DNA from: Escherichia coli
Lineage (GTDB): Bacteria; Pseudomonadota; Gammaproteobacteria; Enterobacterales; Enterobacteriaceae
Direction: 5' to 3' (one strand)
DNA length: 2,216 nt
NCBI RefSeq assembly: GCF_003334305.1
Contig: NZ_QOWS01000056.1
A program made the translations under genes and the position numbers. Below, piece by piece: positions 1 to 2,216 of the stretch (position 1 is its first letter; the number at the start of each line of letters is the position of its first letter). Under the pieces are notes generated by a model, which was not told the origin of the DNA, did not search any database, and saw only the letters and a program-made list of their open reading frames with translations.

Positions 1-33
1 AGAAATATGTTCCATCAATTTTTTAAGTTCCAT
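1..33 (-). CDS. First 11 codons ([11 protein letters not shown]) of a further H-rpt transposase ORF that runs leftward out of the window; unknown whether it is full-length or another truncated copy
   Basis: Positions 1..44 are identical to 381..424 and 761..804, including the ATG (31-33) and the Shine-Dalgarno (38-44). Confidence 0.4.
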   Translation of the reverse strand, partial: MELKKLMEHIS

Positions 34-158
34 TTGTTCACCTTATTTATGTAAGGAGTATTTGATCATGTATAAGCAATAAAAAACAGCTTCAGGTAAT
101 GAGGAATATCTCAATTTTTAAACATAAAATGCGAATTATTTAGTACAAAAAAGTAGCG

Positions 159-413
159 TTACGTGATCTTTCCCTGGGATACAACTCTGGCAATGGTATC
201 GTGAACAGGAATACCATTTTCAAAATCACCATATTGCTTCAAAAAATCGAGATGTGTTTCCCCGAAATCCTCTATATCTTCCCAACCTTCTGCACCAGAA
301 ATAACGGCACAAATAGTCAACAGTAGAATATCTGACAATTTATGCACCACTTTCCAGGCTTGTCTGTAATCGGGGGTAATAGAAATATGTTCCATCAATT
401 TTTTAAGTTCCAT
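159..413 (-). CDS. Truncated ISAs1-family (H-repeat-associated) transposase, N-terminal fragment, 84 aa; second identical copy created by the tandem duplication
   Basis: Nucleotide sequence identical to 539..793 (the 380-bp unit is repeated exactly). Same Shine-Dalgarno and start context. Confidence 0.8.
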
Positions 414-1018: not shown

Positions 1019-1588
1019 TTATTTCTCTTCACTACGAATTAGTTCATGCTGTATCTTTATTAAACATTCGTAAGACTCATTTTTGTTCGGGAGATGTGCT
1101 GTCATTCGAGCATAAGTTGGTTTCTCATCTTTAAAATATTTTACCATGATTGAATTATCAAGGACTGCCAACAACTGAACTGGATCACTGCTCTTTTTTT
1201 GATAGATACCCGCTCTTATATAACTTCTAAACCGATCGCCGAGAAACGCCGTTTTTTCTGCTGTATTTATCAACTCCTGCAACGTTCCTTTGATGGCATG
1301 ATTTTCATTAAGGCGTAGTGACCCGACGCGAATTAAGAGTCTCGCCCCGCTTGGTGTGAATTTATTATTTTTACATGTACCCAGTTCTGTTTGCCAATAA
1401 TACTCACCGATGTCCTCATTCTGATACCATCTCCACATGGCTTTATTATTTAAGACAGGAAACGCGGAAAAAATAGTACCCTTAGCGAAAATAGTAAAAC
1501 AATCATGATCTTTAGCTTGTATTTCGCAATCAGCTATAACACCAAAACTAACAAATATCATCAGCAAAAAGAACAAAACTCTTTTCAT
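1019..1588 (-). CDS. Candidate Rhs immunity protein, secreted/periplasmic (N-terminal signal peptide), 189 aa
   Basis: Intact 189-aa ORF whose ATG (1586-1588) overlaps the toxin stop TGA (1585-1587) as ATGA. A GAGG Shine-Dalgarno lies 9 nt upstream. The N-terminus [24 protein letters not shown] has basic residues, a hydrophobic core and a small-residue cleavage region. The gene is AT-rich (about 30 percent GC in a sampled stretch). Immunity role is inferred from position and coupling only. Length and signal peptide resemble my recollection of E. coli YbfC (unverified). Confidence 0.7.
1532..1588 (-). other. Predicted Sec signal peptide (residues 1-19) of the 189-aa ORF
   Basis: [19 protein letters not shown] followed by DCEIQ. 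No canonical lipobox (Asp precedes the Cys), so signal peptidase I cleavage is more likely than lipoprotein processing. Confidence 0.55.
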
Positions 1589-2216
1589 TTTCTTATTCCT
1601 CTCGATGTTCTCTGTTTCATTTTAGCTAAAATTTCACCCAAATCATCTATCCCTGCTGTTGCTGGCCCATCGGGTTTATTAATGTCTGGGAATAAATAGG
1701 GTTCTGCACAAGTATATCCTGGTGGTAATTGAGTTGTTGGCCAATTTGTCTGTGGCAGGTAATCACTTGCTGTCTTTGTATCCATCCCTGGATACTGGGA
1801 ATCATCCTGTGGCGTACAAGTCAGATTTGGTTTTACCCACTTCCTGCAATACAGTGTGTAGTCGTAAGGGCTTAATACTCTGAAGAATGTTTTGAAAACA
1901 TTAGGCGCACTACTGGCCTGGTCAATAGGATATGGCAGTCTTAATTGTTTCGCTATGTCCGGCAATTTACTTGGATCGGGCGTAGGCGGTTTGTTGGGTC
2001 TCGCTCCATATCCGCCATTATTTAAGTGTCCATATTTTGATGCCAGTCCCATTGAATCTATATACTGAACCGGATTCAGCGGATACTGATAAAAATTCCA
2101 TCCCCCCTTCAGCCCAATCGGATCCTGAGTGATATACCTCCCCTGCAGCGGGTCATAATAGCGGTGGCGGTTGTAATACAGGCCGGACTCCTCATCATAC
2201 TGCTGCCCCGGCAGCC
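1585..2216 (-). CDS. Rhs-family polymorphic toxin, 3' portion: end of the conserved Rhs core fused to a variable C-terminal (toxin) domain; 5' end lies beyond the window
   Basis: Minus-strand translation of 2214..2044 gives [57 protein letters not shown] with no stop codon back to the window edge. This is the hallmark C-terminal end of Rhs/YD-repeat cores (established knowledge). The frame continues uninterrupted to TGA at 1585-1587. The supplied ORF (1585..2052) begins at an internal Met only because the true start is outside the window. Confidence 0.85.
1588..2043 (-). other. Variable Rhs C-terminal domain (Rhs-CT, candidate toxin), 152 aa, activity unassigned
   Basis: Sequence immediately after the demarcation motif: [50 protein letters not shown]...[22 protein letters not shown]. 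Pro-rich with 3 Cys. I see no recognisable nuclease, deaminase or other catalytic motif by eye. Position after the core demarcation is where polymorphic toxin domains sit (established knowledge). Confidence 0.6.
1597..1602 (-). promoter_or_regulatory. Shine-Dalgarno (AGAGGA) for the 189-aa ORF, embedded in the 3' end of the toxin CDS
   Basis: Minus strand reads cgAGAGGAataagaaaATG, with 9-nt spacing from GAGG to the ATG. Confidence 0.5.
2044..2216 (-). other. Conserved C-terminal segment of the Rhs core, including the core/CT demarcation motif region
   Basis: Contains DPIGL followed 21 residues later by [10 protein letters not shown], a PxxxxD-x-GL demarcation motif. The segment is markedly GC-rich (about 59 percent by hand count of 2101-2216) compared with everything downstream. 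Confidence 0.8.

Follow-up and report, generated by a model that had tools for sequence, protein, structure and literature searches.

A serine-for-proline variant of the terminal Rhs core motif in the orphan ybfO module at the rhsC locus of Escherichia coli

The rhsC locus and its orphan ybfO/ybfC module

The window analysed here, a stretch of 2,216 nucleotides from E. coli (contig NZ_QOWS01000056.1 of RefSeq assembly GCF_003334305.1), is the rhsC locus of E. coli K-12. In a search of complete genomes it was matched by E. coli K-12 GM4792 at 99.5% identity across 100% of its length, and at least 80% of the window was covered in 3188 complete genomes. The RefSeq gene order in GM4792 is rhsC (full length), ybfB, a 5'-truncated ybfO, ybfC, truncated ISAs1 copies (ybfQ) and ybfD. 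The ybfO gene of that annotation comprises 507 codons and is labelled as an RHS repeat-associated core domain-containing protein with a missing N-terminus. Compared with the full-length RhsC, K-12 ybfO is devoid of the N-terminal roughly 900 codons, and the K-12-type copy has no complete YD-repeat cocoon upstream of the plug.

The features of the window are collected in Table 1. The ybfO gene extends past the right edge of the window, and its stop codon (1587-1585, minus strand) is overlapped by the ATG of ybfC by 4 nt (ATGA). Window positions 1-380 and 381-760 are 380-bp tandem copies that are 100% identical to each other, followed by a partial, diverged third copy (761 to ~936). The tandem ybfQ layout of GM4792 is the same as that of the window, with only a few SNPs between them. 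Most other genomes match the window over a shorter stretch (~1.66-1.88 kb as against 2.2 kb), so that they apparently have fewer of the 380-bp copies.

Table 1. Genes, domains and motif codons in the 2,216-nt window
Feature	Position	Strand	Basis or remark
ybfO core end, last 57 codons (C-terminal plug / aspartyl autoprotease domain)	2044..2214	minus	translation, TIGR03696, NF041261
YbfO C-terminal tip, putative toxin domain, 152 aa + stop	1585..2043	minus	translation; no family match
ybfC, putative cognate immunity gene, 189 aa	1019..1588	minus	ORF list, annotation 'protein YbfC'
ybfQ, 84-aa ISAs1 (H-repeat) transposase fragments	159-413 and 539-793	minus	one per full 380-bp copy
First half-motif DPIGL	2124-2110	minus	translation; Asp 2124-2122 is the first dyad residue
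Pro codon of PxxxxD	2073-2071	minus	codon reading
Second catalytic Asp (predicted by alignment)	2058-2056	minus	codon reading
Ser (TCA) at the usual Pro position	2055-2053	minus	codon reading
Met of DSMGL	2052-2050	minus	codon reading
Gly of DSMGL	2049-2047	minus	codon reading
Leu of DSMGL, predicted scissile bond after it	2046-2044	minus	codon reading

The ybfO/ybfC arrangement agrees with how orphan rhs-CT/rhsI modules have been described (PMC3150448): ybfO lies downstream of full-length rhsC and ybfB, it has its core sequence in common with rhsC up to the demarcation motif, and the pair formed by the ybfO tip and ybfC also occurs at two loci as part of full-length Rhs genes. The ybfO/ybfC pair is a known and annotated orphan Rhs module of E. 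coli K-12.

Neither the YbfO tip nor YbfC had a family match in Pfam, NCBIfam or PADLOC. Homologues of the tip are found in Salmonella, Phytobacter and metagenomes, and the family is marked by a SPYDYT.YC.KW block, a basic C-terminus (RGxRK) and eight invariant positions (P59, D61, Y62, T63, C66, W69, C76 and C112). An AlphaFold2 model of the tip, based on an alignment of 13 sequences, was poor (mean pLDDT 59.7), and a Foldseek search of the PDB with this low-confidence model returned nothing below E = 2.8. The tip is accompanied throughout by ybfC, including at a second chromosomal locus. The N-terminus of YbfC looks like a cleavable signal peptide with the site before DC, which, together with the conserved Cys residues of the tip, suggests a periplasmic target. 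We infer that the YbfO tip is a toxin and that YbfC is its immunity protein, which would be exported. No paper on the function of ybfO or ybfC was found in the literature searched.

The terminal core motif and its counterpart in rhsC

Translation of the minus strand (1585-2214) places the terminal motif of the ybfO core at 2073..2044, with DSMGL 22 codons after DPIGL. The codons bear out the preliminary description, in which the first copy of the motif was canonical and the terminal one had Ser for Pro. The range that it gave for the motif, 2044-2080, is exact at the start but takes in two extra codons and one base beyond the motif at the end. Two NCBIfam core models cover this region: TIGR03696 (Rhs_assc_core) scores 72.7 bits against a cutoff of 32.5, with model positions 20-76 of 76 on residues 2-57, and NF041261 (RHS_core, an equivalog model) has positions 1205-1261 of 1261 on residues 1-57. 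In both alignments the final model position falls precisely on the L of DSMGL, which therefore marks the boundary between core and toxin, as was also implied by the initial assignment of DSMGL to the Rhs core/CT demarcation motif. Sequencing error or chance as the source of DSMGL can be ruled out, as the sequence recurs in thousands of genomes.

Rhs and TcC proteins shed their C-terminal tip by means of an internal aspartyl protease with the signature DPxG-(17/18)-DPxG[LWF]. The catalytic dyad of Rhs autoproteolysis consists of the Asp of each DPxG (PMC8765631, PMC7170923, PMC8636562), and the boundary was defined by Jackson et al. as DPXG-(18)-DPXG (PMC2935791). Cleavage is abolished by D1324N or D1346N in Pseudomonas protegens RhsA, which is cut after W1350 (PMC8765631), by D1407A and by D1429A in Aeromonas dhakensis TseI (PMC7170923), and by D1338N in Photorhabdus laumondii Rhs1 (PMC8636562). 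The proposal that this region takes part in C-terminal processing is thus well founded in the relatives, where the processing is autoproteolysis by the Asp dyad.

In YbfO, the Asp residues of DPIGL and DSMGL are 22 residues apart, the spacing of the catalytic dyad, and G-L at +3/+4 after the second Asp is kept, with Ala as the next residue. The Asp of DPIGL corresponds to D1324 in P. protegens RhsA and to D1407 in TseI (PMC8765631, PMC7170923). The only departure from the signature is the Ser that occupies the Pro position after the second Asp of the DPxG[LWF] consensus. The chain would accordingly be predicted to be cut between DSMGL and ASKYGH.

The Pro after the second Asp is a consensus position rather than a shown catalytic residue; the literature searched held no report of this Pro being mutated or taking part in catalysis, and no mention of DSMGL, DSLGL or DSxGL in Rhs proteins. 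The core end of YbfO matches the solved chains of T6SS Rhs effectors in phmmer searches (E 1e-14 to 1e-17), and all three distinct solved Rhs proteins that were inspected (Salmonella bongori Rhs, Vibrio parahaemolyticus RhsP and P. protegens RhsA) have Pro at the position equivalent to the Ser. The same holds for the cleavage-tested Rhs proteins whose motif is quoted, TseI and Rhs1 (PMC7170923, PMC8636562). This consistent presence of Pro in solved and cleavage-tested Rhs proteins of known motif lends some weight to the view that the Ser cripples the autoprotease, leaves the tip unreleased and makes the module a toxin in decay or already disarmed, retained chiefly for the sake of its immunity gene. 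The catalytic Asp, the spacing and the G-L pair of YbfO are all untouched, which speaks against it; the genomic evidence on the same question is given below.

A more drastic variant is the RhsA of E. coli EDL933, flagged by Pei et al. (2020) as having no conserved cleavage residues (supplementary file 6 of PMC7170923). We considered whether this exception might be YbfO itself; it is not, as the terminal motif is missing altogether from that protein, which has no terminal DxxGL.

The source of the Ser can be read from the DNA of rhsC aligned with that of ybfO in one genome. Across about 1020 nt, the two genes have 55-60 identical bases in each full 60-base interval, and this identity collapses directly after AATCCG, at the Pro codon of PxxxxD. 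Beyond the break, AATCCG is followed by ATCTCAAATATAGATCCATTAGGA in rhsC and by GTTCAGTATATAGATTCAATGGGA in ybfO; the codon after the second Asp is CCA in the former and TCA in the latter, a difference of one base. The position of the break means that the last 9-10 residues of the motif belong to the exchangeable tip module and lie outside the shared core. Other E. coli Rhs proteins with an identical 13-residue spacer likewise have differing xxxxDxxGL segments, each with its own tip. Hence, the last 9-10 residues of what is regarded as a 'conserved' motif are inherited together with the toxin tip. RhsC and YbfO have in common the first motif DPIGL, the 17-residue spacer and the arrangement of tip and immunity gene (tip/ybfB in the case of rhsC), but RhsC ends with NPISNIDPLGL/ETLKC, with the canonical Pro, and YbfO with DSMGL/ASKYGH.

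The Met of DSMGL deserves separate consideration, as its ATG opens a minus-strand ORF (1585-2052), in frame at the core/tip boundary. Used as an internal translation start, it would yield a free 155-aa product beginning with MGLASKYGH from the orphan gene, and in Salmonella Typhimurium active toxin does arise from internal promoters and start sites close to the sequence that encodes the motif (PMC7043789). However, there is no Shine-Dalgarno-like sequence upstream of this ATG, the number of promoter-like sites (5, as against 3.7 +/- 1.8 expected from shuffled sequences) is not above background, and Met is common at the same position in other Rhs proteins (DPMGL). Nor is cytoplasmic action obvious for a toxin whose immunity protein looks exported. 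We regard an internal start as extremely improbable.

Distribution of the Ser variant

The residue that follows the second Asp was tabulated in three samples, the first two of which, like the tip-type counts derived from them, consist of close enterobacterial relatives throughout. The first sample comprised the best 120 representatives of 90%-identity clusters, found with the core end and tip as the query, and yielded 101 readable motifs, with P in 84, S in 12, A in 2 and Q in 2. The second was drawn from 1.84 billion 50%-identity representatives with a query of the 48 residues upstream of the motif, the motif itself being left out to avoid bias. This search had 50,865 matches at E <= 0.001, of which the best 150 gave 119 new readable motifs: P in 98, S in 16 (13%), and V, F, L and A in one each. 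When distinct tip types are counted among the fetched proteins, there are about 114 with P, 5 with S, 3 with A, 2 with Q and one each with V, F and L. Counted in this way, Ser accounts for only about 4%, and about 10% of the enterobacterial tip types have S, A, Q, V, F or L in the place of Pro. The five tip families that go with Ser are unrelated to each other and begin with ASKYGH, CVEDLCIIEGG, KFHVNGDPSDF, AANQQCTIDP and VNSNLYPNDTE.

For the third sample, the DNA of one genome per species was scanned for the pattern YxYxxNPxxxxD[P/S/A/T]xG[L/F], and the listed motifs came mostly from Pseudomonas (the dominant genus), Photorhabdus, Streptomyces, Halomonas and Pelistega. Among the 139 motifs listed, 137 had DP, one DA and one DT. 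Ser was found in 0 of the 139 listed matches, a figure that is a rough bound and no frequency, since the scan needed YxYxxNP and an NCN codon and Ser encoded by AGY was invisible to it. The sole two non-Pro motifs listed are DALGL in Massilia glaciei (L077, 10655-10701) and DTHGL in L115 (around 5396). A profile search with four diverse core ends added little, as it listed fragments of at most 83 aa alone, seemingly only matches near the query length.

By these counts, Ser is a recurrent minority variant in the Rhs clade of E. coli and Salmonella and is rare elsewhere. How common DSxGL is among Rhs proteins had been named at the outset as the check on the significance of the substitution, and the answer differs with the range considered: it is a fairly common variant in Enterobacteriaceae (16/119, five CT families), which largely settles the matter for that family, but it is absent from the 139 listed motifs of the broad scan. 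The first half of the signature can undergo the same replacement: DSIGL followed by DPFGL is found in the E. coli-like Rhs fragments P0032-P0034, so that both Pro positions of the signature vary in nature.

Within the YbfO tip family, DSMGL is retained in homologues at 70-76% identity, namely a Salmonella-labelled cluster (P0012), an ENA sequence (P0011), a Phytobacter sequence (P0015) and P0017, and a further homologue (P0016) reads DSLGL. Others have DPMGL (S. salamae, P0009), DPKGL (P0010) or DALGL (P0013), and more distant relatives have DAVGL (P0024) or DPLGL (P0023 and P0026). Such interchange of P, S and A within one tip family is the pattern of a weakly constrained position.

In E. coli, the YbfO tip and the DSMGL motif are present (at >=95% identity) in 3537 of the 5426 complete genomes, and the 152-aa tip ORF is intact in all of these carriers. 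The ybfB/ybfO junction that is specific to the orphan was found in only 2656 complete genomes, which means that in roughly a quarter of the carriers the module is arranged otherwise. The annotation 'RHS element core protein', a name reserved for near-full-length matches, lies over the match in 6 of 20 listed rows for the whole window and in 3 of 11 listed rows for the tip. At the rhsC locus of strains Ec40743 (WP_144114349.1) and O157:H7 8368, intact Rhs proteins of 1399 aa that contain DSMGL and the YbfO tip were verified by sequence; a 1399-aa gene at the rhsC locus of EC0430 is known from its annotation alone. In WP5-S18-ESBL-07, a full-length Rhs with DSMGL, also verified by sequence, is encoded at a locus adjacent to nikR; it is a more divergent allele and is accompanied by an intact ybfC homologue. 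The presence of the YbfO-tip/YbfC module there indicates that the module moves between rhs loci. At this nikR-adjacent locus the module is followed by further orphan fragments, NTF2-fold immunity proteins, DUF6258, yibA and a sel1-repeat protein. Judged from this wide distribution, the Ser is no defect peculiar to one decaying pseudogene.

In O157:H7 8368 (4934-5504 of the locus), ybfC has a +1 frameshift, owing to one T too many in a T homopolymer around codon 6, next to the intact 1399-aa Rhs gene. The toxin could be harmless to its producer, the frameshift could be a homopolymer sequencing error, or the gene could be unexpressed. An intact DSMGL Rhs beside a frameshifted putative immunity gene would also be in keeping with a toxin that never gets released, and thus counts against the reading of Ser as a tolerated variant. 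So does the strong preference for Pro outside the E. coli/Salmonella clade, where it is near-invariant (137/139, with no Ser among the listed motifs). A crippled autoprotease would further agree with the state of the K-12 ybfO copy, which is a 5'-truncated pseudogene. On the other hand, the tip ORF is preserved at >=95% identity in thousands of genomes, homologues from other genera keep the Ser despite being only 70-76% identical, DSMGL occurs on intact 1399-aa Rhs proteins at two loci together with intact ybfC, and Ser recurs with five unrelated tips. The O157 frameshift, for its part, could be an artefact of its homopolymer. Taken together, these observations make it unlikely, in our judgement, that the Ser disables the protease.

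One could also envisage that the Ser is adaptive and was selected along with certain enterobacterial tips, for example those of toxins that must act in the periplasm; by setting how fast autoproteolysis runs or what triggers it, the Ser would make release of these tips slower or dependent on conditions. Of the non-Pro residues Ser is indeed the most frequent, with an enrichment in the clade of E. coli and Salmonella, the motif segment passes on together with the tip and could co-adapt with it, and both the signal-peptide-like N-terminus of YbfC and the invariant Cys residues of the tip would suit a toxin of this kind. Yet the occurrence of P, S and A in a single tip family looks like near-neutral drift, and tuning is not mentioned in the literature searched. 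Adaptive tuning therefore seems distinctly improbable. Were it true, the demarcation motif would be a part of the delivery programme of the tip, beyond its role in marking the boundary.

Interpretation and comparison with known systems

The reading that we favour, with a probability of roughly three in four, is that DSMGL is the terminal half of the Rhs autoprotease signature in the orphan ybfO module at the rhsC locus and that its Ser is a tolerated natural variant. In a full-length Rhs protein, the Asp of DPIGL and the Asp of DSMGL would together cut the chain after the Leu, and inside the YD-repeat cocoon the cut would set free, ready for delivery, a tip starting with ASKYGH. The Ser would be a natural one-base variant (TCA instead of CCA) that moves with the toxin tip in the module-specific 9-10 codons. 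In the source genome, the ybfO copy is a 5'-truncated orphan, so that there is no cocoon in which cleavage could take place, and the motif would remain silent unless recombination with rhsC puts the module on a full-length gene.

Most likely, the Ser does not prevent cleavage. We infer that DSMGL proteins are cleaved from the conservation of the motif, the existence of intact full-length genes and the intact catalytic residues. The preliminary description had allowed both for impaired processing and for tolerated variation; the finding of Ser on intact full-length Rhs proteins favours the latter and makes impairment the less attractive of the two. The substitution is best read, from sequence comparison, as ordinary, naturally recurring and tolerated variation.

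It follows that the Pro of the second DPxG represents a strong preference and no requirement in natural Rhs sequences. This has a practical side, as in-silico cutting of Rhs proteins with a strict DPxG[LWF] pattern misses the module of two thirds of the complete E. coli genomes. If the Ser did alter the kinetics of cleavage, it would offer a natural handle on the control of toxin release; nothing found here points that way.

Besides RhsC, the close systems that have been described include the orphan rhs-CT/rhsI modules (Poole et al., 2011; Koskiniemi et al., 2014; Starsta et al., 2020). Like these, ybfO is a piece of core with homology to the main rhs gene upstream of it, keeps the demarcation motif, has its own tip and is followed by a small ORF, with insertion-sequence debris nearby. 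It differs from the published modules in having Ser in the demarcation motif, and the toxin and immunity roles of ybfO and ybfC are putative.

The layout of the YbfO core end is also that of the T6SS effectors TseI, Rhs1, RhsA and Pseudomonas aeruginosa Tse5 (PMC7170923, PMC8636562, PMC8765631, PMC9637101), which have the signature, the 22-residue dyad and the cut at +4. In RhsA, the spacing of D1324 and D1346 is the same as that of the YbfO Asp pair, and the chain is cut 4 residues after the second Asp (PMC8765631). Unlike YbfO, all four of these proteins have Pro after the second Asp, and their tips are different. More distant kin are the TcC subunits of ABC/Tc toxins (TccC3 and YenC2), which contain a homologous aspartyl protease plug and are cut after DPxGL inside the YD-repeat cocoon (bioRxiv 10.1101/2024.02.26.582050). 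The TcC structures 4o9x and 4igl match the YbfO core end at E values of about 1e-5, although these proteins rely on a different delivery machine, the TcA pore, and have Pro in the place of the Ser.
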